From: Escherichia phage DCP2
Reading direction: 5' to 3' (one strand)
Sequence record: OR780565.1
Length of the DNA stretch: 64,000 nt
This document shows, one piece after another, positions 2,580-64,000 of the stretch (positions are counted from its first letter, which is position 1; each line of letters begins with the position of its first letter). The position numbers and the translations under genes were made by a program. Below the pieces are notes generated by a model. That model was not told where the DNA came from. It searched no databases and saw only the letters and a list, made by a program, of their open reading frames with translations.

Positions 2580-3545
2580 TTATATTGCTCCTAATATTTT
2601 ACTTTGCGAGTTGACAATTCCCGTCATAGTATTAATGTTTGAAATGCTTCCAGCAGTTCCTCCTAATCTACTAAGTCGTGAAAGCGAATTAGATAGTCCA
2701 GTAACACCTCCACTATTTCCGAGAACGCTTTGAATGCCATTTATAGCAGCAGATTCAAGCCATTCAAGCGCAGCTTGTCTATCAACTGCTCCAGCCTGCA
2801 TGACTCTATACGCAAAAGTAACATCAAATGTAGTTATTTGATTATCTCCATCATATGATAACTCAGGAGCGCTCACTGACACTGGAATGCATCCGGTGAA
2901 CATCACAGCAGTATGAGGTAATCCATTACGAGCATGAAGATTAACCTGAATGTCTGCCTCGACATCTTGTGGCAAAGCACGCAGTCCAGTTACTGGGTCT
3001 TGAACAGCGTTAACCCAGTCTTGCATTGCACGATAATTACATGCTTCTGAATCCATTCTAAATGAAATAACCAAAGGGTCTAATTCTCTCCCAGTTATAC
3101 GAATATTAGGAGAATTATAGTTCCAGTCAGTTTCATAGGATAATCTATTCTCTGGCATTTTTACAGAATATATCATCAATCCAGATGAGTTATATGCCAT
3201 GTTAAAGAAGTCAATTAAATATGTACCAACTGTAAATGAGCCCAATAAACTTTGAACTGTACGTTGACTCATGGCACCAATAAGATATTTACTAACCCCT
3301 GATTTTCTTATCAGTTTTTGTGTGCCAGCAGTAATTAGCGTGGTAATTCCCTGATTAATATCGCCTTGAGTCAATCCTAACCAATCTGAATTTAGACCCA
3401 AGTTATTATAAGAAAAGTTGCTAATTGAACTTATCAACGAAGAGCTTTTAGTTGATGGAGTTGTCGCAAAAACGCAGCTAAACATATTATTACGTTGGAA
3501 ATCTGCGTTTATTGCTTGATTATTAAATTCCTCTAAAGAATACAT
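2580..3545 (-). CDS. 54: gp54 baseplate tail-tube initiator
   Basis: 321 aa (T4 gp54 320 aa); position in the 54-48-29-28-27-51 block. Confidence 0.85.
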   Translation of the reverse strand: MYSLEEFNNQAINADFQRNNMFSCVFATTPSTKSSSLISSISNFSYNNLGLNSDWLGLTQGDINQGITTLITAGTQKLIRKSGVSKYLIGAMSQRTVQSLLGSFTVGTYLIDFFNMAYNSSGLMIYSVKMPENRLSYETDWNYNSPNIRITGRELDPLVISFRMDSEACNYRAMQDWVNAVQDPVTGLRALPQDVEADIQVNLHARNGLPHTAVMFTGCIPVSVSAPELSYDGDNQITTFDVTFAYRVMQAGAVDRQAALEWLESAAINGIQSVLGNSGGVTGLSNSLSRLSRLGGTAGSISNINTMTGIVNSQSKILGAI

Positions 3546-6950: not shown

Positions 6951-8070
6951 TTTTAACCTTAACTGGGTCTATTGTTTCCAGTTTCGTTGCATTAGTGAAC
7001 ATATATAGATGAGTTACTGAATTATTATTGGATAATTCATGAATAACTTCATCAACGTAAAATTCTGTTTTAAATTGGTTTTTACTATCATTAAAAATAA
7101 TTTTAACGCCAGGAGTCAAGTTAAAATTACCGACAGTAGAACATTTAGCATAGCCATCGTATTGCGCCATAGTTTGAAGACGAATAGCTTCTTCGTATCC
7201 ATTCCTATAAGTCATTTCAGAATAAGCACCTGACCTTGACACTACAATAGAGTTTTCGCCCTTTCCTGTAGTAATCATTGGCAATGAAGAATCTAAAAAT
7301 GAATGAGCATAGATAGTAGCGTTTTTCATTGGGTCACGTTTGTGAGGATTCGATTTAGTCAACCAAACGAAATCATACGCTAATGGATATTTTAATTCTT
7401 GGATGAATTGACCTATTAAAGATGGCTCACCGACAATCATTGGATATGGTTCTTGATTTATCATCATATCATAGTCCATCATGTTAACTCCCATGATGTC
7501 TTGCCACACAAACACAAATTTGTCACTTCCTACAGCTAGAGCAACTTCTCTGACATATGACAAATAGTTTTCAAATGTACTAGTCCACGGAATATCAGGA
7601 ACATAAGCATTTATAGCATTTATTGCTGGAGTTAATAATGTGCGATCTTGATAAATGACACCAAGCATTTCCTTTATAGATTCACCTGCGTCAGGGAAAA
7701 ACGGTCTGCCAAATTTAAGATTTTCTATGGAATGAATAGTTCCCAATTCAATAGCAATGATGTTATCACCCTTTGAATCTACTGACACGGAAAAATGCTT
7801 ACATCCATAAATTCGTGTTTTAACGTTATTAATATCGTTTGCATTAGCTACAGAAATCTGAATTATTTCATTTCCATCCATTTTTGTATGGATGTTTTTA
7901 GAATCATAAAACTGCAGCATTCCTTCATTTCGGCCATAAAGAGAATCCCGCATAGTTAATGTGGTAATAGTAGCAGCTAATTCAACAAATCTATTATTAC
8001 TCCAAGCGTCGTAGCTATCAAATAATTTAACGCTGAGATTTGGATATCCAGGGCGTTGCAACATACTCAT
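6895..8070 (-). CDS. 27: gp27 baseplate hub subunit
   Basis: 391 aa, same as T4 gp27; synteny. Confidence 0.85.
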
Positions 8071-8819
8071 TATTGTTTATCCTTCTCAATCAGTTTTAAT
8101 ACGAATCCGCGCTCGGCAGGAATCATTTTCATTATTGAATTTAAGCTATAATTACTTTTTACGAGTGTGTGATTAATTTGATAAAAAGTAAATATCTCAT
8201 CTGGGTTAACTAATAGCTTAAACACATCTACTATATCAGTGTATTTTTTTACATACTTATTACAACACGACATATGCAATGTTAAATTAATAGGATTCAT
8301 TGCATCAAGAATTTTTTCTAATGTTTCTATCTCGATGGCATCAACAAGTTCTATTTGACTTGATTCACTAATTTCCTTCCAATCATACCATATTTCATCT
8401 ACTTGAACAGAATGAATATTTTCAGTAATCATCTTTGCTTTATTTTCATAAAACTCAGAAGGAAACTTTAATTTAATTTTAACATTAGCTACATCAAAAA
8501 CAGGTTCCTTTAATTCTTTTTGATATATTTCAAATGGAACTGTCTTTTCTTTTTTACATTTTGGACATACAAATGTGACCGGTACTTTAGTTTTACCTAT
8601 TGACCCTACAAATACCTGCAAAAATATAAATGGTTGCCAAGTCTTCGGATAGTCTCCAAAATAATCGGCAATTAAGTCAGCAATTATTTCTTTTTGTTCT
8701 TGTGGTGACCGATGTTCTATATCGTTTCGAACTAACAAAAAATCTCGATAATCTTCTACCGTAAATGGTTTAAAACGATGAACACCATCTGGTAATTTAC
8801 AACGAATAATGTTTGCCAT
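8070..8819 (-). CDS. 51: gp51 baseplate hub assembly catalyst
   Basis: 249 aa, same as T4 gp51; divergent from gene 26 as in T4. Confidence 0.8.
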
Positions 8820-18483: not shown

Positions 18484-20049
18484 TTAGATACCTTTAACAT
18501 ATACACGTCTAAAGTAAGCGTTTTTACCAAGGCTATTCAGAATAGAAGGCATACCGCTCTGGATGCGAGAAGCCGGAGCCTGAGCAGCGGATTCTGCAAA
18601 TGGGTTGATACCGATACCGTAACGAGTTTTGAATCCCATTACTGGTTGGAAGTTCTTCGGATCGGAACCACGCAGCGGAGTCAGAGCTACATATGGAGCA
18701 TAGTAAATACCAGCATCCATTTCGTTCGGACCTTTATAACCTACAGTGAAATAATCCTGTTTAGCATACTGGTCGATATATACACGGTATTTACCACCCA
18801 GAACACCCGCAAATACTGACTTGGTAGTATCAGTGTTAAAGCCGGTAGCCAGACCCTGTGCAGCATAAGAAATGCCAGTATCAACTGAAGCCAGAACGTT
18901 AACTACGTTACGGGAAGCGATAATGAAGTTACCTTCACCACGACCGGTCTGACGAGCAATTTCAACTGCTTCTTTGTCAATCTGGAACAACAGAGCTTTA
19001 AAGGATTCACCCGCCCAGCGAGCACCACGAATATCAATCGGATCCTGGAAGTCAAATACACCAGCTTTAGAACCCGGAGTCAGGGTCATACCAGATTTAC
19101 CAACCTGAGCGGAGTAGTTAATCCAATCAACAACTTCGCGGTTGATTTCCAGCATAATTTCTGTAGCCAGAATACCAGACAGTTCAGCATCAGCATCCAT
19201 ACCGTGAACAGCGCGAAGGTCTTGTGCTAATTCAATAGAGTAAGCAGCTTTCAGCTGACGAGATTTAGCTTCGATAACTTGTTTATCGATACGGAAGCCC
19301 ATTTCATTCCATGGGTTATCGGTAGAACCGTTGAAACCTTCCTGAAGTTCAGCGATAGAAGTAGCCATACCTTCAGCGATTTCTACCAGTACACCAGCTT
19401 CCATTTGTTTCTTAATTTCAGCATCTAATTTGTCTGCGTCAGATGCGCCTGAATCAATTTGTTTAGCTGCTGTAGCTTGCAGATATACTGTACCAGTTTC
19501 CTGGAAGAAGTGAGTGTAAATAGTTCCGACTTCAAGAGTATCACTTGCTTTCAAAGCAGCGAATTTCTTAGCAGCACCCTGACCAGAGAACATTGCATCT
19601 GGACCATACATTGGGTGGAATGCTTCTTTAGCGCCGGAAGCGATTGGATCTTTACCATATACTGCGCGCAGCGCGAATACCTGGCCAGTCGGGCTGTTCA
19701 TTGGCTGAACACCACAAATATCGAAAGCAATCAGGTTAGGAATAGCACGACGTACCATACCCATAACAGCTGGGCCAATCTGAGTTACTGCGCCAGAAGT
19801 CTGACCTGCGGCGATGTTGGTAGCATTGTAACCGTGGTCACCACCGATTTCAGCTTCTGTTAAGAAAGAACCGAATGCCTGAGCAATTTTTTCGTCTTTA
19901 TATTCCGGAGCTGTCTGGAAATCTTTTTCCTGGTTTTCAAAGATTTTAGCGATAATCGCTTGTTTGCTATTAGCAATTTCCGGTAAACCTTCACCTTCCA
20001 GTAATGGCTTCCATTTGTTCAAAAGTTCAGCTTTAGTTTTGATAGTCAT
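18484..20049 (-). CDS. 23: gp23 major capsid protein
   Basis: 521 aa, same as T4 gp23; MTIKTKAELLNKW N-terminus. Confidence 0.95.
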   Translation of the reverse strand: MTIKTKAELLNKWKPLLEGEGLPEIANSKQAIIAKIFENQEKDFQTAPEYKDEKIAQAFGSFLTEAEIGGDHGYNATNIAAGQTSGAVTQIGPAVMGMVRRAIPNLIAFDICGVQPMNSPTGQVFALRAVYGKDPIASGAKEAFHPMYGPDAMFSGQGAAKKFAALKASDTLEVGTIYTHFFQETGTVYLQATAAKQIDSGASDADKLDAEIKKQMEAGVLVEIAEGMATSIAELQEGFNGSTDNPWNEMGFRIDKQVIEAKSRQLKAAYSIELAQDLRAVHGMDADAELSGILATEIMLEINREVVDWINYSAQVGKSGMTLTPGSKAGVFDFQDPIDIRGARWAGESFKALLFQIDKEAVEIARQTGRGEGNFIIASRNVVNVLASVDTGISYAAQGLATGFNTDTTKSVFAGVLGGKYRVYIDQYAKQDYFTVGYKGPNEMDAGIYYAPYVALTPLRGSDPKNFQPVMGFKTRYGIGINPFAESAAQAPASRIQSGMPSILNSLGKNAYFRRVYVKGI

Positions 20050-25114: not shown

Positions 25115-27094
25115 TTAACCTGCAAGACCAGTTAACTCATCGAAATCTGCGCCAGTAGCAGTTGCGACGAAATTAAGTTGGATATAATTTATACTACGAG
25201 CCGGTTGGATGTAGAATGTTGCAACAAACTCATTTCTATCAATTACTGACGGAGTGTTATTTGTTGTATCGCAAACTACACGATATTCATAAATTCCACC
25301 GAGAGCTTTAATTCCCTGTAAGTATTGGGCAGTTTCTGTGCGGAATGATGAACGAGTAAACGCGTTGTTTAATTCGAACAAACGATATTTTGAACTACGT
25401 CCGATATTCGTTTTCAACATATTAAACAGACGACGAACGTTAATACGATCAAATGGAGAAGGAACAGAAGTAGCTGTTTTATCACCATATAATACGTAAC
25501 CATCACCACCTGTACCAGTTACTGGGTTGATAGCTTCTTGGTATAAACGGTCGCGCTGAGCTTGGCGAGTTTCAATAGCAAGTTTAATAACGTTAAGAAT
25601 CTGGCCGCGATTATAACCAGCTGGAGACATCCAAGTCTGAGAAACGTTATCGGTTCTTGCACATAAACCGGCAATATCAGCTGCTAATGGAACCCAACGA
25701 TTTACATCATTATATTTGTCATACTGATATTTGTAGTTACCATCAATTGCTGCGTAGGTTGAACTGATATTAAAGTTATTATCAGTGTATGAACCTGTTG
25801 CGGTTCTCCAATTGACTAAGTTATCAACAGCGCGAGTTACAGGAATTCCAACTACAGTTTCGCGCGGTGGTGAGCACAATACTAAGCAATCCTGGCGAGC
25901 ATCCCCAATTGAAACAACGTGTTTTTGGACAGTAGATGCTGTTTCCAAAGATTCACCGGCGCAAGAACCAGCAATAAACAGCTGAACGTCAACAGATTCA
26001 CGGTCAGCAAAGAAGTCCCAGGCTTCCATTAAATCTCCTGCTGTTACTTCAGCATTTGATGATAATCCACCAGACAGAGTTAAAATTCCAGAGAATCCTT
26101 CTGGCCAGTTTTGTGCAGTTGCGAAAATATATTCTGAACCACCTTTTGCGAAAAAGTCATCAATGTAGATGTTACTATCGTAAATATCTTTTTCACCACG
26201 CTTTGTTGAAAGAACAATACTTTGAACAATAGCATCATTACGGCGAACTATAATAGCGTATTGTGAATCAGTTTGTGGTCCATATCCAAACACTGCCTTA
26301 GCAGTAGATGCGCGTGTTCCGCCACCTGGATAAATTGGGAGTAATGCAGAAGCTCCTTTTGCGTAGTCAGCTTTAGATACGATTTCGATTTCGATTTTAT
26401 CGCCCAACTCGCCTGGATAAAGAGCTACTACTCCTGGAATTCCATATTTTTCGAGATTTGCTTGAAAGTCAACCGCTGTCATAGCAGCTTCAGCATTTTC
26501 AATTTCAGCTAATAAAATACCGGAATCAGTAATAATTTTTCCGAGAGTTATTACTGCAGCTAAGCCAGATGAAGACGAAGAAATTTCCGCGGTCCAGTTA
26601 GAACCTAGTTCTGGATATTCACCGACTTCTTTCGCTTTAGCGATAATTTTTGCGGTAGGAATATTAATTTTCTTAATTTTTCCATCAGCATCTACTTCGG
26701 TAATTTTACCTTCCGTTTCAATGTCTTCTGAAACATACTTAACTGTGATTTTATCTCCAACCGCGTAGTTACTACCTGGGGTAGAAATAGTGTATTCAAT
26801 ATTACCAGCAATCGGAGATGAGTTTTTAGCGGTATCTCTATCGACAGCACGCACAACTCGCAAATCATTTCCATATTGTAAGAAATTCATTGCAGACATA
26901 AAATAGTCAGCAGTTTCAGCTGTAGGTTGACCAAAAGTATTAACTAAATCTACTTCATTTGTAACCTGTTTGATCTGAAAAGCAGGACCCCACTGGAATT
27001 TACCGGCCAAAGCTGCTGTACCAGTAGAGTTATTAACCACGGTGCTTTGAACCGTAGTTTCTTTGAGCTCAATGCCCGGAGATAATAAAGTCAT
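25115..27094 (-). CDS. 18: gp18 contractile tail sheath
   Basis: 659 aa, same as T4 gp18; minus-strand TATAAATA at 27124-27131. Confidence 0.9.
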   Translation of the reverse strand: MTLLSPGIELKETTVQSTVVNNSTGTAALAGKFQWGPAFQIKQVTNEVDLVNTFGQPTAETADYFMSAMNFLQYGNDLRVVRAVDRDTAKNSSPIAGNIEYTISTPGSNYAVGDKITVKYVSEDIETEGKITEVDADGKIKKINIPTAKIIAKAKEVGEYPELGSNWTAEISSSSSGLAAVITLGKIITDSGILLAEIENAEAAMTAVDFQANLEKYGIPGVVALYPGELGDKIEIEIVSKADYAKGASALLPIYPGGGTRASTAKAVFGYGPQTDSQYAIIVRRNDAIVQSIVLSTKRGEKDIYDSNIYIDDFFAKGGSEYIFATAQNWPEGFSGILTLSGGLSSNAEVTAGDLMEAWDFFADRESVDVQLFIAGSCAGESLETASTVQKHVVSIGDARQDCLVLCSPPRETVVGIPVTRAVDNLVNWRTATGSYTDNNFNISSTYAAIDGNYKYQYDKYNDVNRWVPLAADIAGLCARTDNVSQTWMSPAGYNRGQILNVIKLAIETRQAQRDRLYQEAINPVTGTGGDGYVLYGDKTATSVPSPFDRINVRRLFNMLKTNIGRSSKYRLFELNNAFTRSSFRTETAQYLQGIKALGGIYEYRVVCDTTNNTPSVIDRNEFVATFYIQPARSINYIQLNFVATATGADFDELTGLAG

Positions 27095-33505: not shown

Positions 33506-35056
33506 TTAGTAATGAACTTTAATAATATAGTTTAATGATATATTCCATGGTCTAGTTTCATAACCAATTAATCCTTCACGATTAAGTGTACCATGAGCAT
33601 CTCTCGGTCCACCTAATTCAAATCCATCATTAGTGAAGTATGAAGCATTATCCCAGTCGGAATATTTTCTAGTTCCAAGATATCCTTGATAAACTGACGC
33701 GCCAAATGGGCCTTCACTTCTGTTATATTCACCCCAACCACCAGCATGTTTATGGTATGACATTTGTTGTGCCTGAACACCACCAACATGCATTCCGTCA
33801 CATCCTACGCCCAGTCTATCCTTTCCATAGCCATCTTGTCCACGTTGATTTAAAATATGACCGCCTGTGCCGGCTCCTCTGACGAAAAGACCCCGCATAT
33901 CAGGAACGCCAGGATTATTCCAATCGCCACCAAATCTTGTTCCAACTACGTTTCTATAATCAGGAAATTGGTCACCTGACACGGTTCCGCCGTGGCACAT
34001 AATCCAACCTGGAGGTGCTGAATCACCTGCAAACATCATAATAGTCCCAACCGGAACTCTTTCTGATGCATAACGTTCTGTCGCAACAGGTTGATCACCA
34101 TTTTTCCACATTCCGCCGCGCGACCAAATTCCGTTTGCTGTAAGATGGTCTAAATTTAAAGAACCATTAATAGTTTGTCCACCACGAGTATTAATTACAT
34201 CTGCGTTCCATGCTAATGCTCCAGAGCTATCACCTTCAGGGGCAATACCGGCTTGCGTCGTTAATTTTACCACTCCACGCATAGAACCGGTAGCTCCTCG
34301 ACCATTTAGTGTTTCACCTGTTACTGCAACACCACCCAAATTATTATTAATTTCAGTCTGCGTTCCTAGGCGTATAACACCCTTATATTCATGTGTTGCA
34401 ACAGAATTCATAAAGGTATACGGGGAAATTGCATATCCTTCGCGGAGAGTTCCTTGACGAATTTGTGCAACAGTAGATAATTGAACTACTCCTCTCACCG
34501 ATTCTGTTGCAGTGTCTTCTGAAGGAGCTATTTGCGAAATTAATTTTATTGCAAGTTTTTGGGTTTTTAGCGGAGTCATCGCAGTAGTATCATCAACTCC
34601 AGCCAAAGCTGCAGGTGTAGATGATATTTTAATAACCCCGTTTGATGACTCAGACGAATATCTATTTTTGAACACATCGTCAGTGTGGTATTTCAGTTTT
34701 TGTGGTGTTATTGATGAATTATTATCTGAGCCTTTTAATGTTTCTTCATTTGTTGAATAACGCGTTAAACCATATTTAGTTTCAGTAGCATTTGGATACA
34801 ATAATCTTGTTGCTAATGTAGCTGGTGTAACGATTTTAGAATTATTAGTTCCATCTAAAACCTCTTGCTCTGACGCAATCATTGCTATTCCTTTAACTTC
34901 CATAGTTGCATCAGGAATACCATTTACGCCGATATTACTTATTTTTGATAATGCAGACTGTACTGTCGTAACAGTGCCAGGAAAATTCGATCCAGTAGGA
35001 TCGAATTTAACATATTTTGATTCATTTGATACGTGCTGATATGTATTGTTACTCAT
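33506..35056 (-). CDS. 12: gp12 short tail fibre
   Basis: 516 aa (T4 gp12 527 aa from memory); [14 protein letters not shown]-terminus; C-terminus ...[13 protein letters not shown]. Confidence 0.85.
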
Positions 35057-53701: not shown

Positions 53702-53788
53702 GCGAGAATGGTCAAATTGGTAAAGGCACAGCACTTAAAATGCTGCGGAATGATTTCCTTGTGGGTTCGAGTCCCACTTCTCGCACCA
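53702..53788 (+). tRNA. tRNA-Leu (anticodon TAA), CCA encoded
   Basis: Manual cloverleaf: gcgagaa/ttctcgc acceptor, anticodon loop cttaaaa, long variable arm, ggttcgagtcc T-arm. Confidence 0.8.
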
Positions 53789-53793
53789 AATTT

Positions 53794-53867
<74 letters not shown>

Positions 53868-53877
53868 ATTTAATTTA

Positions 53878-53951
53878 CTCCGTGTAGCTCAGTTTGGTAG
53901 AGCGCCTGATTTGGGATCAGGAGGTCCAAGGTTCAAATCCTTGTATGGAGA
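53878..53951 (+). tRNA. tRNA-Pro (anticodon TGG), no encoded CCA
   Basis: Manual cloverleaf: anticodon loop tttggga, ggttcaaatcc T-arm; 2 nt upstream of tRNA-Ser (dimeric precursor arrangement). Confidence 0.75.
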
Positions 53952-53953
53952 CT

Positions 53954-54043
53954 GGAGGCGTGGCAGAGTGGTTTAATGCACCGGTCTTGAAAACCGGCAG
54001 TCGCTCCGGCGACTCATAGGTTCAAATCCTATCGCCTCCGCCA
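53954..54043 (+). tRNA. tRNA-Ser (anticodon TGA), long variable arm
   Basis: Manual cloverleaf: ggaggcg/cgcctcc acceptor, anticodon loop cttgaaa, long variable arm, CCA encoded. Confidence 0.8.
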
Positions 54044-54047
54044 GTTT

Positions 54048-54124
54048 TGCTGATTTAGCTCAGTAGGTAGAGCAACTCACTTGTAATGAGAAGGTCGGCG
54101 GTTCGATTCCGTCAATCAGCACCA
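54048..54124 (+). tRNA. tRNA-Thr (anticodon TGT)
   Basis: Manual cloverleaf: tgctgat/atcagca acceptor, anticodon loop cttgtaa, ggttcgattcc T-arm. Confidence 0.75.
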
Positions 54125-54125
54125 A

Positions 54126-54199
54126 GGCCCTGTAGCTGGAAGGTTCAAGCAAGCGACTCATAATCGCCAGATGGTGGTTCAATTCCACCCAGGGCCACC
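54126..54199 (+). tRNA. tRNA-Ile/Met (anticodon CAT; probably lysidine-modified Ile as in T4)
   Basis: Manual cloverleaf: ggccctg/cagggcc acceptor, anticodon loop ctcataa. Confidence 0.75.
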
Positions 54200-54208
54200 A
54201 AATTAATT

Positions 54209-54296
54209 TGGGGAGTTATCCCGTAGAGGTAGCGGTGTGGACTGTAAATCCATTGTCATTGCGACTCGGGTGGTTCGACTCCACCACTCCCCACCA
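54209..54296 (+). tRNA. tRNA-Tyr (anticodon GTA), long variable arm
   Basis: Manual cloverleaf: ggggagt/actcccc acceptor, anticodon loop ctgtaaa, ggttcgactcc T-arm. Confidence 0.7.
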
Positions 54297-54300
54297 ATTT

Positions 54301-54375
54301 GGATGTGTAGCTCAATGGCAGAGCGATCGCCTGTTAAGCGATTGGTTATAGGTTCGAATCCTATCACGTCCGCCA
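54301..54375 (+). tRNA. tRNA-Asn (anticodon GTT)
   Basis: Manual cloverleaf: anticodon stem atcgc/gcgat with loop ctgttaa, ggttcgaatcc T-arm. Confidence 0.75.
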
Positions 54376-54489
54376 AATTTGTGACAACTGTCACATTAAT
54401 ATCTACTTGACGCGATTATAGGGGTTGAACTGATCACTCTTCTCTTAATTTCGTGTGAAGACATCTTGATTGTTGGAGTAGGTATTAAT

Positions 54490-54565
54490 GTGGCCGTAGT
54501 TCAGTTGGTAGAACTCGAGATTGTGATTCTCGTAGTCATGGGTTCGACTCCCATCGGTCACCCCA
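54490..54565 (+). tRNA. tRNA-His (anticodon GTG) with extra 5' G(-1)
   Basis: Manual cloverleaf: anticodon loop ttgtgat; 8-bp acceptor stem including G-1 opposite discriminator C. Confidence 0.75.
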
Positions 54566-54569
54566 ATTA

Positions 54570-54645
54570 CGGGGCATAGCTCAGAAGGAAGAGCAAGGAC
54601 CTTCTAAGTCCTAGGTCGTAGGTTCGATCCCTACTGCCTCGACCA
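54570..54645 (+). tRNA. tRNA-Arg (anticodon TCT)
   Basis: Manual cloverleaf: anticodon stem aggac/gtcct with loop cttctaa, ggttcgatcc T-arm. Confidence 0.8.
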
Positions 54646-60031: not shown

Positions 60032-60834
<803 letters not shown>

Positions 60835-60835
60835 T

Positions 60836-60865
60836 GTTTACTTCCTCCAAGGACTTTGATACTAT
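60836..60865 (+). promoter_or_regulatory. early promoter with embedded stem-loop upstream of denV
   Basis: gtttac-N18-tactat; inverted repeat cctccaa (60844-60850) / ttggagg (60881-60887) pairs the promoter region with the denV Shine-Dalgarno. Confidence 0.5.
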
Positions 60866-60892
60866 ACATTCATCAACTACTTGGAGGAAATT

Positions 60893-61309
60893 ATGACTCG
60901 TATCAATTTAACACTTGTTTCTGAACTGACCGATCAACATCTTATGGCTGAGTATCGTGAATTGCCACGTGTTTTTGGTATAGTTCGTAAGCATGTGGCA
61001 AACGGTAAGCGCGCTAAAGATTTTAAAATATCTTCTAAATTTATTTTAGGTTCTGGTCATGTTACTTTCTTTTACGATAAGTTAGAATTTTTGCGAAAGC
61101 GTCAATCGGACATTATAACGGAATGCTTAAAACGCGGGTTCAGTATAAAAGATACTGAAGTTCCTGACATCAGCGATATTCCAGTAGAATGGAAAAATGA
61201 TTATAATCCATGCAAATCAGCTATTAAGTTGAGTCAACAACGACTCGATGAAAAAATTTTAATGAAGCCACACTGGTATAAGTATTACGGCAAAAATATT
61301 TACATTTAA
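60893..61309 (+). CDS. denV: endonuclease V, pyrimidine-dimer DNA glycosylase
   Basis: Start set at [12 protein letters not shown], giving 138 aa as in T4 DenV; GGAGG RBS. Confidence 0.9.
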
Positions 61310-61454
61310 ATAACATGGGAATAACCTGGACCTCATGATTCTATGAGGGATTCCCGCCAACCTGTAATAAGGTCGAGCCCAAGTGCGGTAATGGGTAAAT
61401 ACAGAAATGGACAATTCATGCGCCATGGAATGGCCCAAATTTAGAGAGAATAAA

Positions 61455-61994
61455 ATGAGAACATTTTTAACTGGTCCTTATCTATCCCTGATGAATGCTT
61501 TTACACACCATTCTGATGCTAGAGTAGAAGAAATTTGTAAAAACGAATATATCCCACCATTTGAAGACTTACTTAAGCAGTATTGCACACTTCGACTAGA
61601 CGGTGGACGTCAATCCGGTAAATCAACTGCTGTGACTAACTTTGCTGCTAATTGGCTGTATGACGGTGGAACAGTTATTGTTCTTTCTAATACTTCAGCT
61701 TACGCTAAAATTTCTGCAGGCCACATTAAAAAAGAATTTTCTCGTTATTCTAGTGATGATATTCGATTCCGCTTATTTACTGATTCTGTCCGTAGTTTTA
61801 TCGGTAATAAAGGAAGCAAGTTCAGAGGTTTATCTCTTTCGCGAATTTTGTATATAATCGATGAGCCTGTTAAATCTCCTGATATGGATAAAATTTACGA
61901 TATTCATATTGAAACTGTGCAACACTGCTGTAATAGTAAATGCTGCATTGGCGGTATTACTCGTCCGCAGTTTTTCGTAATTGGAATGCAATGA
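61455..61994 (+). CDS. small P-loop NTPase
   Basis: Walker A GGRQSGKST and Walker B-like ILYIIDE; start at MRTFLTG (alternative ATG at 61425). Confidence 0.55.
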   Translation: MRTFLTGPYLSLMNAFTHHSDARVEEICKNEYIPPFEDLLKQYCTLRLDGGRQSGKSTAVTNFAANWLYDGGTVIVLSNTSAYAKISAGHIKKEFSRYSSDDIRFRLFTDSVRSFIGNKGSKFRGLSLSRILYIIDEPVKSPDMDKIYDIHIETVQHCCNSKCCIGGITRPQFFVIGMQ

Positions 61995-62320
61995 TGACAG
62001 ATACGCAACTTTTCGAATATCTTTATTTTTCGCCAAAAACTATTAAAAATAAATTGGTGAATCATTTTGAAATTTTGGCAAATAACAACGTCTTGAGCGA
62101 ATTTTATCCCAAGCAATACAAATTACAAAAAGGTGTATTCAAAGGATGCAGAGTTTTGTGCACTGCTCCTAATGCAAGATTAATGAATAAAATTCCATAT
62201 TTTACCATGGAATTTATTGATGGACCATTTAAAGGATTAATTACTCAAAGTTTAATGGCATATGATTCTGAGCCATTTTTAATTAAAGAACAGTCTTGGA
62301 TAAATTTATTTTCTAATTGA
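61991..62320 (+). CDS. hypothetical protein translationally coupled to the P-loop ORF
   Basis: ATGA overlap with the upstream stop; 109 aa. Confidence 0.5.
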   Translation: MMTDTQLFEYLYFSPKTIKNKLVNHFEILANNNVLSEFYPKQYKLQKGVFKGCRVLCTAPNARLMNKIPYFTMEFIDGPFKGLITQSLMAYDSEPFLIKEQSWINLFSN

Positions 62321-62326
62321 GGTTAT

Positions 62327-62689
62327 ATGAAAGCATATCAAATTCTTGAAGGCACGCATAAAGGTACTATTTATTTTGAAGATGGTATTCAAGCACGAAT
62401 TATTGTCTCTAAAACCTTTAAAGAGGACTCTTTTGTAGACCCGGAAATTTTTTACGGTTTGCATGCCCGCGAAATTGAAATTGAAACACAACCTACAGTT
62501 AAAATTGAAGGTGGTCAGCACCTGAACGTTAACGTTCTGCGTCGCGAAACTCTGGAAGATGCAGTTAAGCATCCGGAAAAATATCCGCAGCTGACCATCC
62601 GTGTATCCGGTTATGCAGTTCGCTTTAACTCTCTGACTCCGGAACAGCAGCGCGACGTTATCGCTCGTACCTTTACTGAGAGCTTGTAA
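62327..62689 (+). CDS. GrcA/YfiD-like autonomous glycyl radical cofactor
   Basis: C-terminal 60 aa ([59 protein letters not shown]) matches the E. coli GrcA / pyruvate formate-lyase glycyl-radical domain, including the RVSGYA glycine; T4 Y06I is a known homolog. Confidence 0.85.
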
Positions 62690-62910
62690 TGGCAAAGATA
62701 ATTATTGAAGGTTCTGAAGATGTGCTAAATGCTTTCGCCGAATGGTTTAGTAATTCAGGCGAACAGCAATTTAATGAAGCATGGAACATGGGTGATATTA
62801 ATGGAATTTATCCTACGACAGAAATTTCTGTTCAGGGATATGGCATTCATGAACCTATTCGTTTAGTTGAATATGATTTGGGAACAGGTGAGGAAGTAAA
62901 ATATGATTGA
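62689..62910 (+). CDS. hypothetical small protein (vs-region)
   Basis: 73-aa ORF; ATG overlaps the GrcA-like stop. Confidence 0.5.
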   Translation: MAKIIIEGSEDVLNAFAEWFSNSGEQQFNEAWNMGDINGIYPTTEISVQGYGIHEPIRLVEYDLGTGEEVKYD

Positions 62911-63169
62911 AGACATTAAAGGTTATAAGCCACATACTGAAGAGAAAATCGGTAAAGTGAATGCTATCAAAGACGCTGAAGTTCGTTTAGGACTTATCTT
63001 TGATGCTTTATACGATGAATTCTGGGAAGCACTAGATAATTGTGAAGACTGTGAATTCGCAAAGAATTATTCCGAAAGTCTCGATCAGTTAACTATTGCT
63101 AAAACGAAGCTTAAAGAAGCCAGTATGTGGGCTTGTCGTGCTGTGTTCCAACCAGAGGAAAAATATTAA
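62903..63169 (+). CDS. hypothetical small protein; candidate Vs.4/Acb2-like cyclic-nucleotide sponge
   Basis: 88-aa ORF with GAGGAAG RBS; the Acb2 suggestion is positional (counting back from regB), not from recognised motifs. Confidence 0.5.
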
Positions 63170-63447
63170 TGGCTCAATTAAGCGCAGGGTTTGGTTATGA
63201 GTATTATACTGCCCCTCGTCGTGTATCTGTCGCTCCTAAGAAAATTCAAAGTCTTGATGACTTCCAAGAAGTAGTCCGTAAAGCTTTCCAGGACTACGCA
63301 CGTTATCTTAAAGAAGATTCACAGGACTGTCTCGAAGAAGATGAAATTGCTTACTATGAGCAGCGTCTTGAACAGCTTAAAAACCTACATGAGGTTCGTG
63401 CAGAAGTTACAAAGTCTATGAATAAATTGATTAGATTTAAAGAATAA
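63169..63447 (+). CDS. hypothetical small protein (vs-region)
   Basis: Start at the [11 protein letters not shown] (TAATG overlap); 92 aa. Confidence 0.5.
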
Positions 63448-63450
63448 CTG

Positions 63451-63480
63451 TTTACTTTTCCTCTTGACTGTGGTATAATT
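63451..63480 (+). promoter_or_regulatory. early promoter (GTTTAC-N18-TATAAT) with embedded stem-loop upstream of regB
   Basis: gtttac at 63451-63456 and tataat at 63475-63480; inverted repeat cctcttgactg / cagttaagagg brackets the -10 and abuts the GAGGAG RBS. Confidence 0.6.
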
Positions 63481-63506
63481 TTTCTATCAGTTAAGAGGAG
63501 AATAAC

Positions 63507-63968
63507 ATGACTATCAACACAGAAGTTTTTATCCGTCGAAATAAGCTTCGTCGTCACTTTGAGTCGGAGTTTCGTCAAATTAACAATGAGATTCGTGAGG
63601 CATCAAAAGCAGCAGGGGTCTCATCGTTTCATCTAAAATATTCTCAGCATCTTCTTGATCGTGCAATTCAACGGGAGATTGATGAGACATATGTTTTTGA
63701 ATTATTCCATAAAATAAAAGACCATGTTTTAGAAGTTAATGAATTCCTGAGTATGCCTCCGCGTCCTGACATTGACGAGGATTTTATTGATGGGGTTGAA
63801 TATCGTCCTGGGCGTTTAGAAATCACCGATGGAAATCTTTGGCTTGGATTTACAGTTTGTAAACCTAATGCGAAGTTCAAAGACCCGTCACTTCAGTGCA
63901 GGATGGCAATTATCAATAGTCGTCGTTTACCAGGAAAGGCTTCTAAAGCAGTAATTAAAACTCAATGA
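63507..63968 (+). CDS. regB: RegB site-specific endoribonuclease
   Basis: 153 aa, same as T4 RegB; strong early promoter and GAGGAG RBS. Confidence 0.8.
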   Translation: MTINTEVFIRRNKLRRHFESEFRQINNEIREASKAAGVSSFHLKYSQHLLDRAIQREIDETYVFELFHKIKDHVLEVNEFLSMPPRPDIDEDFIDGVEYRPGRLEITDGNLWLGFTVCKPNAKFKDPSLQCRMAIINSRRLPGKASKAVIKTQ

Positions 63969-63975
63969 GGTAAGC

Positions 63976-64000
63976 ATGAGAAAAGCACTACTCGCTGGTC
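63976..64000 (+). CDS. 5' end of next gene (partial)
   Basis: ATG at 63976 reading MRKALLAG... runs off the window end. Confidence 0.35.

Follow-up and report, generated by a model that had tools for sequence, protein, structure and literature searches.

The gene at 62327-62689 of Escherichia phage DCP2 (sequence record OR780565.1) raises the question of how one short reading frame came to have two halves of such different composition, and of what its product is for. The window, that is the whole stretch of 64,000 nt that was analysed, has a GC content of 0.359, and the gene goes from 0.339 in its first half (62327-62506, 180 nt) to 0.503 in its second (62507-62689, 183 nt), with GC3 values of 0.22 and 0.48, respectively. 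We compared the second half with 766 windows of 61 codons taken from the 62 long ORFs of the 64-kb window, in which GC3 had a mean of 0.23 (sd 0.06) and a maximum of 0.43; the second half of the gene exceeded all 766, and its codon-preference score fell within the lowest 0.4% of them. It uses CTG five times, CGT or CGC six times, CCG three times and CAG four times, against a phage background preference for TTA, AGA/CGT, CCA/CCT and CAA. The original prediction, that the last roughly 60 codons are host-like and richer in GC than an AT-rich first half, thus held when measured. The E. coli grcA gene has a GC3 of 0.39 in its N-half and 0.45 in its C-half, and the 0.48 of the phage gene is near these values.

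We conclude, with good confidence, that the gene, vs.6, is an old phage-resident homologue of grcA (yfiD), encoding a spare part for PflB, whose 3' part has been overwritten by host grcA in a recent and recurrent manner.

The vs.6 gene and its product

The gene and its landmarks, with the evidence for each, are as follows.

62327..62689, + strand: vs.6 / grcA coding sequence (ORF, Pfam, TIGR04365, PDB 6OWR, T4 Y06I orthology)
62319..62322, + strand: Shine-Dalgarno-like GAGG, 4 nt 5' of the ATG (direct sequence reading)
62609..62611, + strand: predicted glycyl-radical site Gly95, codon GGT in an RVSGY motif (motif position and GrcA/PFL alignment)

The reading frame has the ATG start and the length of 120 amino acids that had been given for it. 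The GAGG overlaps the stop codon of vs.7 (TGA, 62318-62320), with which the upstream ORF ends at 62320, and the stop codon of vs.6 (TAA, 62687-62689) overlaps the ATG of vs.5 (62689-62691), the order vs.7 - vs.6 - vs.5 being in agreement with the annotation of T2 and T4. A promoter and terminator scan of 60500-64000 gave counts not above those of shuffled sequence, and vs.6 appears to be translated inside a series of tightly packed early genes. Rfam gave no match at E ≤ 1 in 60500-64000, which speaks against an RNA element as the cause of the conservation. A conserved GC-rich island at 61310-61430, considered as a structured RNA, folded no better than shuffled sequence.

The product carries a Pfam Gly_radical domain at residues 60-101 (E 2.2e-18), matches YfiD in the PDB (6OWR, E 4.6e-42) and, from residue 58 to 120, aligns to PFL 697-759 (PDB chains, E 4.8e-26). 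Its residues 61-120 are E. coli GrcA 68-127 with no difference, as expected from the proposed GrcA/YfiD match of the 3' domain, and Gly95 corresponds to Gly102 of E. coli GrcA. With TIGR04365 (spare_glycyl, GrcA) the score was 154.6 bits, over residues 20-120 only and below the equivalog cut-off of 170, because of the diverged N-half; since the model is built on bacterial proteins, this shortfall weakens the claim of a bacterial-type GrcA and not the claim that the protein works as GrcA. The product and T4 Y06I (T4 ORF 63.1) are identical at 118 of 120 residues, and vs.6/GrcA is the name given in the annotation of T2 and hundreds of other phages; the matches to vs.6 in Straboviridae came to about 1,500 records. 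The product is the orthologue of T4 vs.6/Y06I, a characterised autonomous glycyl-radical cofactor.

Two spare parts of PFL have been validated, Y06I and YfiD (PMC8683613). Y06I restores oxygen-cleaved PFL, according to Wagner et al. 2001 as cited in PMC8683613, and the repair activity claimed for the T4 homologue extends by orthology to the DCP2 protein as a predicted function. Residues 61-127 of YfiD share a fold with PFL 693-759, and residues 1-60 are disordered and required to bind cleaved PFL (PMC8683613). From the Y06I orthology and the YfiD literature, the host activase PflA would install the glycyl radical on Gly95, and the structured C-terminal domain would replace the C-terminus of PflB molecules cut by oxygen at the radical glycine and bring the activity back. 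Such a rescue of PflB may keep up acetyl-CoA, formate and ATP in an infected cell unable to make new host proteins.

Service to the phage's own anaerobic ribonucleotide reductase had been proposed as another role, and T-even phages do encode NrdD, a glycyl-radical enzyme that suffers the same oxygen cleavage. An early comparative paper also proposed a role of vs.6 in nucleotide metabolism (PMC1524935). However, a spare part for NrdD instead of the host PflB is highly improbable: the domain is identical to that of host GrcA and follows host grcA, not any phage gene; the PDB matches at E ≤ 1e-5 include the PFL segment and no ribonucleotide reductase chain; and the biochemistry of Y06I, as reported by Wagner et al. 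2001 through PMC8683613, is the rescue of PFL. The 64-kb window holds no second glycyl-radical motif and no nrdD gene.

The host-derived tract and its borders

Comparison with the host divides vs.6 into three parts.

62327..62504, + strand: 5' half of phage lineage, from codon 1 to the first base of codon 60 (GC 0.34, GC3 0.22; 56 against 6 informative sites; hhalign 97.3%)
62505..62679, + strand: host-derived conversion tract of 175 nt (blastn, base-by-base comparison, triplet test)
62680..62689, + strand: phage-specific 3' end (62680 and 62684 differ synonymously from E. coli)

Of the 175 nt of the tract, 174 are those of E. coli K-12 grcA, with the sole mismatch at 62518 and a perfect run of 161 nt (62519-62679), which is the reason to consider the event recent. 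Over the last 186 nt of the gene, mismatches with K-12 grcA occur only at 62504, 62518, 62680 and 62684. The tract encodes most of the structured glycyl-radical domain, GrcA residues 68-125 as numbered in E. coli. When the gene was searched with blastn against complete E. coli genomes, nt 179-363 of the query were 98.4% identical to grcA in 5,426 of 5,426, and the first 178 nt were without comparable similarity to E. coli grcA. A triplet test set the window gene against E. coli grcA and the gene of CC31, a phage relative without conversion; the informative sites were 6 E. coli-like against 56 CC31-like upstream and 36 against 1 downstream (Fisher p = 1.4e-19), with a breakpoint between nt 177 and 189 of the gene.

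Over a core of 171 nt, a single site separates the window from K-12; a cryptic Escherichia clade shows 4 differences and Citrobacter, like the other genera, at least 13. The alignment to enterobacterial grcA therefore identifies a source, and E. coli sensu stricto can be given as the donor of the window tract. Apart from the tract, nothing in the 64-kb window has a megablast match to E. coli chromosomes: positions 1-40000 gave no match to E. coli genomes, and with positions 40001-64000 the vs.6 tract was the top match in every E. coli genome. The usual second match per genome is probably the paralogue pflB, because the tract alone gives an equal number of places per genome and lists pflB. Matches of the window to plasmids originate in its tRNA region.

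The 5' half, 62327-62504, is AT-rich, and its counterpart in E. coli YfiD is the greater part of the disordered half. As a single sequence it had no match in NCBIfam, and its homology was seen only by profile-profile comparison: an hhalign comparison of a profile of 11 phage N-halves with one of 11 host GrcA N-halves gave a probability of 97.3% and an E-value of 2.5e-11 over the full length. It is a strongly diverged GrcA N-terminal region, 7 residues shorter than that of bacterial GrcA and about 27% identical at profile level. At the other end, the last four codons and all sequence 3' of them are specific to the phage lineage. The terminal codons are GAG AGC TTG in Tequatrovirus, GAG AGT CTA in Mosigvirus and GAG GCA CTA in Jiaodavirus, compared to GAA AGC CTG in the hosts, and no host match was found past the vs.6 stop codon in the window or in isolated phages.

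Homologues of vs.6 are kept across T4-like phages, in 6 of 6 genomes (PMC1524935). Unconverted full-length homologues occur in T5-like, RB49-like and Aeromonas phages, RaK2 and CC31, with 3' halves at phage composition that differ from every host in our panel at 24-50 of 171 sites. The homology of the N-half to GrcA, together with the phage-specific last codons and flanks, points to an internal homologous replacement, and the event is best described as a gene-conversion patch inside an old phage-resident grcA homologue and not as a fusion to an unrelated N-terminus. Of the idea that a recent host-derived segment had been fused to a phage N-terminus, the host origin stood and the fusion did not.

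Recurrence of the tract and rival accounts of the mosaic

The patch is not a one-off, being found in related phage genera with different host donors. About 645 records of Tequatrovirus and Mosigvirus match E. coli grcA at 90-99%, with a start base that is always the same, and for K. pneumoniae grcA there are 134 phage records with 90-99% identity, beginning at this base too; these counts are BLAST identity bands, and about 25 phage sequences were compared base by base. All the K. pneumoniae-type tracts listed are from Klebsiella phages, which were Jiaodavirus where the taxonomy was checked. KPV15, for example, has one difference from K. pneumoniae grcA over about 150 nt. Over 171 nt, the tracts of E. 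coli phages differ from E. coli at 1-8 sites and those of Klebsiella phages from K. pneumoniae at 4-8, and comparison with the grcA of the other host gave 85-89% identity. At least two sequences of Jiaodavirus type, phage ATCCa and the metagenome locus L174, carry a tract nearest to Raoultella, the nearest sampled host differing from the ATCCa-type tract at 11-12 sites. The 5' junction is common to all tracts, whatever the donor. The donors number no fewer than three (E. coli, K. pneumoniae and a Raoultella-like species), and exchange has taken place more than once. Among Tequatrovirus phages, the Yersinia and Serratia isolates have tracts of E. coli type, and one phage with K. pneumoniae as its isolation host bears a tract nearest to Raoultella. 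No Salmonella-type tract at ≥90% was found in any phage. Bootstrap values for the Klebsiella groupings were moderate (78% and 55%), because the tract is short.

Synonymous divergence (dS) in the two halves tells separate histories. Between Tequatrovirus and Mosigvirus, dS was 0.35-0.55 in the N-half; in the C-half it was 0.07-0.12 where the Mosigvirus-type sequence had a fresh tract and 0.23-0.33 with the drifted tracts of JK42 and EP32a; within Jiaodavirus the order was reversed, with 0.05-0.14 in the N-half and 0.12-0.32 in the C-half. The histories of the two halves are thus decoupled in both directions. Local identity between the window and a Mosigvirus-type locus reaches a peak of 1.00 that coincides exactly with the tract, the flanks having 0.7-0.9. 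In some E. coli strains grcA matches the T2 tract at 100%; this tract has CGT at a codon where K-12 and the window have CGC, a difference of a single site that could be due to parallel mutation. Phage-private changes in the tracts are mostly third-position changes from G/C to A/T, of which there are 19, against 7 from A/T to G/C and 2 of neither kind. In Slopekvirus Miro and Pseudotevenvirus GAP161, 60 of 60 domain residues are of K. pneumoniae or E. coli type with 25-30 synonymous differences, a pattern that reads as selection at the protein level.

These observations suggest the following mechanism. The segment 62505-62679 would have been replaced via homologous recombination between phage and host, that is by gene conversion with both crossovers within vs.6, the 5' one where phage-host nucleotide similarity begins, at a conserved block of ten residues, and the 3' one a few codons 5' of the stop codon. 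T-even phages degrade the host DNA and carry a modified base for cytosine, which should limit recombination with the host. The long perfect match of a converted tract may ease the next conversion, so that the process would be self-reinforcing; between conversions the tract would drift towards A/T at third codon positions. We propose tentatively that concerted evolution between the structured half of vs.6 and the grcA of the current host bacterium is still going on, this half being a self-renewing copy maintained by frequent and favoured host-to-phage conversion; the 5' half would simply follow phage descent. The selective reason is likely to be that the spare part must fit the host PflB and be recognised by the host PflA.

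An account with fewer host events is that one conversion took place per host group (E. coli, Klebsiella) and that the converted allele then spread by phage-phage recombination. The low divergence of the tract between Tequatrovirus and Mosigvirus could come from such an exchange of one converted allele: the two genera have common hosts and recombine readily, their tracts differ at 3-6 of 183 sites compared to about 19 of 180 in the N-halves, and the tract is locally the most similar stretch between them, so that phage-phage crossovers would fall there. However, both crossovers would be needed within about 175 nt, as each phage genus keeps its own N-half, last four codons and flanks. Most tracts are 1-2 differences from E. 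coli with private changes towards A/T, a star pattern centred on the host; the T2-type and window-type tracts match different E. coli alleles, and tracts within Jiaodavirus have at least two donors. We consider this account rather unlikely, and at least three host-to-phage events would still be required, so that it would alter the count and not the mechanism. Much less credit can be given to a single ancient acquisition of grcA with a 3' half frozen by nucleotide-level selection on codon usage, mRNA structure or an embedded signal. Protein-level constraint is indeed extreme, with 60 of 60 residues of host type even where codons have drifted, and host grcA has high expression and a biased codon usage, but the synonymous sites follow the host of each phage group (dS between E. 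coli and K. pneumoniae is 0.51) and drift freely to phage composition in JK42, EP32a, Miro, GAP161, CC31 and T5. The codons of the tract are disfavoured in the phage background and the region is without an Rfam family match, and we regard this reading as very improbable.

Near-identity by itself gives no direction, and the 3' half of host grcA might in principle be of phage origin. The chance of this is slighter still, as the composition of the tract is that of the host and not of the phage, E. coli grcA is uniform in GC3 (0.39 and 0.45) and present in 5,426 of 5,426 genomes, E. coli and K. pneumoniae are similarly identical in the 3' and 5' halves (89% and 85%), enterobacterial hosts cluster broadly in the tree, and phage-private changes go from G/C to A/T, away from the host state. 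Least probable of all, to the point of being negligible, is an artefact of host contamination or chimeric assembly of the DCP2 genome. A shared tract can mislead assemblers, and the metagenome contig OCHD01000040.1 (L175) passes from Mosigvirus into the E. coli chromosome within the tract; the same in-frame mosaic, flanked by phage sequence, nevertheless recurs in hundreds of phages that were sequenced independently, the early T4 GenBank record X04567 among them, and in the window phage sequence returns 10 nt before the end of the vs.6 stop codon.

Significance and comparison with known systems

T-even phages are usually viewed as nearly closed to recent gene flow from the host. On the present comparisons, vs.6 would be a datable host-to-phage transfer by homologous recombination in such a phage, and the sole segment of this kind in 64 kb. 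The gene and its biochemical function are already known, and the repeated copying of host sequence into it appears to be undescribed before, as a new example of a known process. The full-text papers searched report what Y06I does and that vs.6 matches a Pfam family, and neither conversion nor a nucleotide match to host grcA is mentioned in them; an earlier remark may stand in Miller et al. 2003, Bowman et al. 2019 or Wagner et al. 2001.

The mosaics can be read as a repeated natural experiment, in which the swapped piece is most of the structured domain that would fit host PflB and PflA, and the disordered half that binds cleaved PFL stays phage-specific, which hints at which half must match the host and which the phage tunes. 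The vs.6 tract is also a possible system for measuring recombination between a lytic phage and the DNA of its host. If the proposed concerted evolution is true, the tract would record the recent natural host of a phage lineage, and vs.6 would offer a clear example from nature of a phage that is strictly lytic and modifies its DNA, yet regularly recombines with a chromosome under destruction. In practical terms, a tract of 175 nt identical to the host can join phage and E. coli contigs in metagenome assemblies, of which L175 is one probable case. The grcA gene has been proposed as a marker of this phage family (PMC12845203), and grcA-based PCR or qPCR for the family would cross-react with E. 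coli DNA. Contig L175 is the one case in which the host match went past the stop codon, continuing over no fewer than 785 nt into E. coli eamB, and a chimeric assembly is the most likely explanation.

Among known systems, T4 Y06I is the closest: the DCP2 protein is predicted to be functionally no different from it, and the vs.7 - vs.6 - vs.5 neighbourhood is common to DCP2, T4 and T2. With E. coli GrcA/YfiD, the product shares the RVSGY radical motif and the domain (residues 61-120, GrcA 68-127), and differs in the N-half, which is 7 residues longer in GrcA and has a profile identity of about 27%. The GrcA-like genes of T5-like Demerecviridae, RB49/Phi1, Aeromonas T4-like phages, the Klebsiella jumbo phage RaK2 and Karamvirus CC31 are full-length and encode about 120-150 amino acids, with the same domain, which has the conserved ten-residue block and, further on, RVSGYAVRF. 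In the representatives checked, their exact runs with E. coli or K. pneumoniae grcA are mostly of 12-20 nt, with one of 29 nt. Unlike vs.6, they bear no sign of recent conversion.

The nearest parallel for the process is the mosaic psbA of cyanophages, reportedly described by Zeidner and colleagues in 2005 and Sullivan and colleagues in 2006 as the outcome of intragenic recombination between host and phage. There too, a phage copy of a host metabolic gene carries host patches that are seen by composition and identity breakpoints, in a pattern that implies homologous exchange between the host and phage copies. The vs.6 case differs in that the patch can be assigned to a named host species at about 99-100% identity, its 5' junction is fixed by where similarity begins, it covers most of one structural domain and the donor changes with the host genus, and in that the phages are strictly lytic, with modified DNA, and destroy the host chromosome.

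Host-like sequence in the second half of vs.6

The window covers part of the genome of a T4-type phage (genus Tequatrovirus), where vs.6 lies in the order e (lysozyme), denV, vs.7, vs.6, vs.5, vs.4 and regB, identical to that of phage T2.

62327-62689, + strand, vs.6 ORF (120 aa)

The nearest database relative of vs.6 is found in Yersinia phage ZN18 (99.2% nucleotide identity), and its protein differs from the T4 homologue already named in the original prediction, ORF 63.1 (Y06I), by two residues, T54P and R73H. The product carries a Pfam Gly_radical domain and an RVSGY motif with Gly95; it aligns with E. coli YfiD/GrcA, solved by NMR (6OWR, E 4.6e-42), and with the pyruvate formate-lyase C-terminus (residues 697-759, E 4.8e-26). 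The gene is kept in 6/6 T4-like phage genomes (PMC1524935), with homologues also in T5-like, RB49-like and Aeromonas phages and in jumbo phage RaK2; gene, name and biochemical function were previously known. Two genes 3' of vs.6, the 88-aa ORF at 62903-63169 is the homologue of vs.4, whose counterpart in phage Mizar is annotated from a BLASTp match to the T4 anti-CBASS protein Acb2.

The predicted shift in composition within vs.6 is real and extreme. GC is 0.34 in the first half and 0.50 in the second, and GC3 is 0.22 and 0.48, respectively, compared to a maximal GC3 of 0.43 among 61-codon windows drawn from the window's 62 other long ORFs; codons of the second half are CTG, CGT/CGC, CCG and CAG, whereas the phage background favours TTA, AGA, CCA/CCT and CAA. 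Nucleotide alignment to grcA was decisive, with a source of E. coli type, and strongly confirmed the recent host origin proposed for the 3' half: nt 179-363 of vs.6 are 98.4% identical to grcA in 5,426/5,426 complete E. coli genomes. Over the last 186 nt, mismatches to K-12 grcA were solely at 62504, 62518, 62680 and 62684, leaving a perfect 161-nt match at 62519-62679. When the 171-nt core of this tract (62505-62679) was compared with 82 host grcA genes, we counted 1 difference from K-12, 4 from a cryptic Escherichia clade, 13 from Citrobacter and more from the others.

As a control, the full 64-kb window was searched against E. coli genomes. Positions 1-40000 gave zero matches, and within 40001-64000 the vs.6 tract was the best match in every genome; the typical second match per genome was assigned to the paralogue pflB, given that a search with only the tract yields an equal count. 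Other short stretches of high GC (0.48-0.54, compared to 36% for the window), at 18495-19933, 33691-34158, 2846-3049 and 25790-26045, were without E. coli genome match at megablast level. Plasmid matches of the window linked the phage tRNA cluster to plasmids of roughly 100 kb. This cluster (53702-54645) holds 10 tRNAs (Leu, Gly, Pro, Ser, Thr, Met, Tyr, Asn, His, Arg), and its Tyr/Asn part (54205-54361) has counterparts at 82-88% identity on ~200 non-mobilizable plasmids of that size, mostly from E. coli, which may be phage-plasmids.

An internal patch in an old phage homologue

A host segment fused to a phage N-terminus had been predicted; its host-derived 3' half stands, but the N-half is itself GrcA-homologous and the last codons are of phage type. 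For the 5' half, profile-profile comparison of 11 phage with 11 host GrcA N-halves gave an end-to-end alignment (hhalign 97.3%, E 2.5e-11), and the N-termini of some phage lineages (L101-L106) are visibly intermediate. At the other edge, similarity to E. coli ends a few codons 5' of the gene end (GAG AGC TTG TAA in the window, GAA AGC CTG TAA in E. coli), and both the terminal codons and what follows them are characteristic of the phage genus. In a triplet test with E. coli grcA and the unconverted Karamvirus relative CC31, informative sites 5' of the breakpoint were 56 like CC31 and 6 like E. coli, compared to 1 and 36, respectively, 3' of it (p = 1.4e-19), with the breakpoint at gene nt 177-189. 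The simplest reading of these sequences is an old phage grcA homologue in which an internal segment was swapped for host sequence via homologous recombination.

The two halves have divergent histories. Synonymous divergence (dS) of Tequatrovirus from Mosigvirus amounts to 0.35-0.55 for the 5' half, compared to 0.07-0.12 in the 3' half for fresh tracts and 0.23-0.33 for the drifted tracts of JK42 and EP32a; within Jiaodavirus the relation is reversed (5' half 0.05-0.14, 3' half 0.12-0.32). Along the locus, the window and a Mosigvirus-type sequence are most alike on the tract (identity 1.00, with flanks at 0.7-0.9). In T2, the tract matches grcA of certain E. coli strains at 100%, and a codon that is CGC in K-12 and the window is CGT there. 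Phage-private differences fall nearly all at third codon positions, and are mostly G/C to A/T (19, compared to 7 A/T to G/C and 2 neither); host sequence decaying under phage mutation bias would look like this, which sets the direction of transfer as host to phage. Transfer from phage to host is contradicted both by this direction and by the composition of the tract.

A GC-rich island (0.47) separates denV from the ORF after it, at 61310-61430. It shares 97-98% identity with a Mosigvirus-type locus, compared to 40-90% for neighbouring sequence, is without Rfam match and has a predicted fold no better than shuffled sequence.

Recurrence across phage genera and hosts

Two queries were run against 50,697 phage records: the grcA locus of E. 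coli and grcA of K. pneumoniae, the latter taken from a chromosome filed as a plasmid. The E. coli query matched 604 records at 95-99% and 41 at 90-95%, spanning Tequatrovirus and the distinct genus Mosigvirus, and the K. pneumoniae query 106 and 28, respectively; all matches listed for the latter were Klebsiella phages, Jiaodavirus where taxonomy was checked. Both sets of matches start at the identical base, in GAAGG of the conserved EGGQ block. Cross-comparisons between the two types gave 85-89%, and Salmonella grcA matched no phage record at >=90%. Klebsiella phage KPV15 has 1 difference from K. pneumoniae grcA in about 150 nt and phages 15882, JD18 and M21a have 2-5, while phage ATCCa and a metagenome contig (L174) share a distinct tract, nearest to Raoultella (11-12 differences). 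A neighbour-joining tree built on the core tract nests E. coli phages within Escherichia and joins four Jiaodavirus phages to K. pneumoniae (78% bootstrap) and ATCCa to Raoultella (55%). The sequences show that host-to-phage replacement in vs.6 occurred repeatedly, from different hosts.

Part of the Tequatrovirus-Mosigvirus pattern may come from spread of one converted allele among co-infecting phages, a reading that still needs at least three host-to-phage events overall. An ancient grcA acquisition frozen by nucleotide-level selection is contradicted by synonymous sites that are host-specific and by the drift evident in other phage lineages. In the T5-like, RB49-like, Aeromonas and RaK2 homologues, the 3' half is at phage composition, with 24-50/171 sites off every host. 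An artefact as source of the mosaic is excluded, hundreds of independent genomes carrying it, the early T4 record X04567 included.

Phage RB55 (KM607002.1), where vs.6 is unannotated, has a frame-breaking 13-nt deletion inside the host-like tract, and KPV15 as filed in IMG/VR lacks 1 nt in the 5' half. Either the gene is occasionally lost or these are sequencing errors. A 19-kb IMG/VR 'viral' contig (L111) holds a full-length bacterial-type grcA with host-type N-terminus, nearest to Yersinia (15/171 differences). A bacterial or prophage-flanking origin is likelier for it than a phage vs.6. Metagenome contig OCHD01000040.1 (170,927 bp; locus at 7577-8539) is 99.2% identical to Mosigvirus JK42 up to and into vs.6 and switches at gene nt 315-353 to E. 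coli chromosome (grcA 3' flank, eamB; 99.2% over 785 nt, reaching the end of the reference used). It is likely an assembly chimera via the shared ~175-nt tract; a real phage-host hybrid is less favoured. grcA was chosen in 2026 as a core-gene PCR/qPCR typing marker for Straboviridae among E. coli phages (PMC12845203), and primers sited in its 3' half would have 96-100% identity to E. coli chromosomal DNA as well.

Domain boundary and proposed mechanism

The functional account of vs.6 is drawn from orthology and literature. A GrcA-type domain stands in for the PflB C-terminal piece lost after oxygen attack at Gly734, restoring activity; YfiD residues 61-127 are structured, folding as PFL 693-759, and residues 1-60 are disordered yet required both to bind cleaved PFL and for activation to be efficient (PMC8683613). 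The converted tract corresponds to E. coli GrcA residues 68-125, most of the structured part, and the phage retains its own version of the disordered part; the tract boundaries are close to the domain boundary. In the infected cell, host PflA would place the radical on Gly95 of the vs.6 protein, whose domain would then replace the PflB C-terminal piece and bring back its activity. The likely benefit is PFL kept working after shut-off of host gene expression; the role predicted for the phage anaerobic ribonucleotide reductase is not supported.

Recombination between phage and host copies would generate the patch, its 5' junction being fixed because crossovers are possible only where the two are similar. 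Exact runs shared with host grcA are mostly 12-20 nt (one of 29 nt) in unconverted representatives compared to about 160 nt in converted ones, so that a first conversion should greatly ease later ones, and the tract may evolve in concert with the host copy. In the Klebsiella phage Miro (Slopekvirus) the C-terminal 60 residues are exactly those of K. pneumoniae-type GrcA, and in the Cronobacter phage GAP161 (Pseudotevenvirus) those of E. coli-type GrcA, with DNA 25-30 synonymous differences from every sampled host. These sequences suggest that selection on the protein favours an exact match to the host; they would reflect either older, since-drifted conversions or such selection in very strict form.

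What is added here is that an old grcA homologue of the phage carries a conversion patch in its interior, with edges near a domain boundary and recurring, host-matched donors; we found no description of these features in the literature searched, whose reach did not extend to key older papers. Host-phage intragenic recombination in auxiliary metabolic genes is a known process, reported for cyanophage psbA, and this is the process that the vs.6 patch has in common with psbA.
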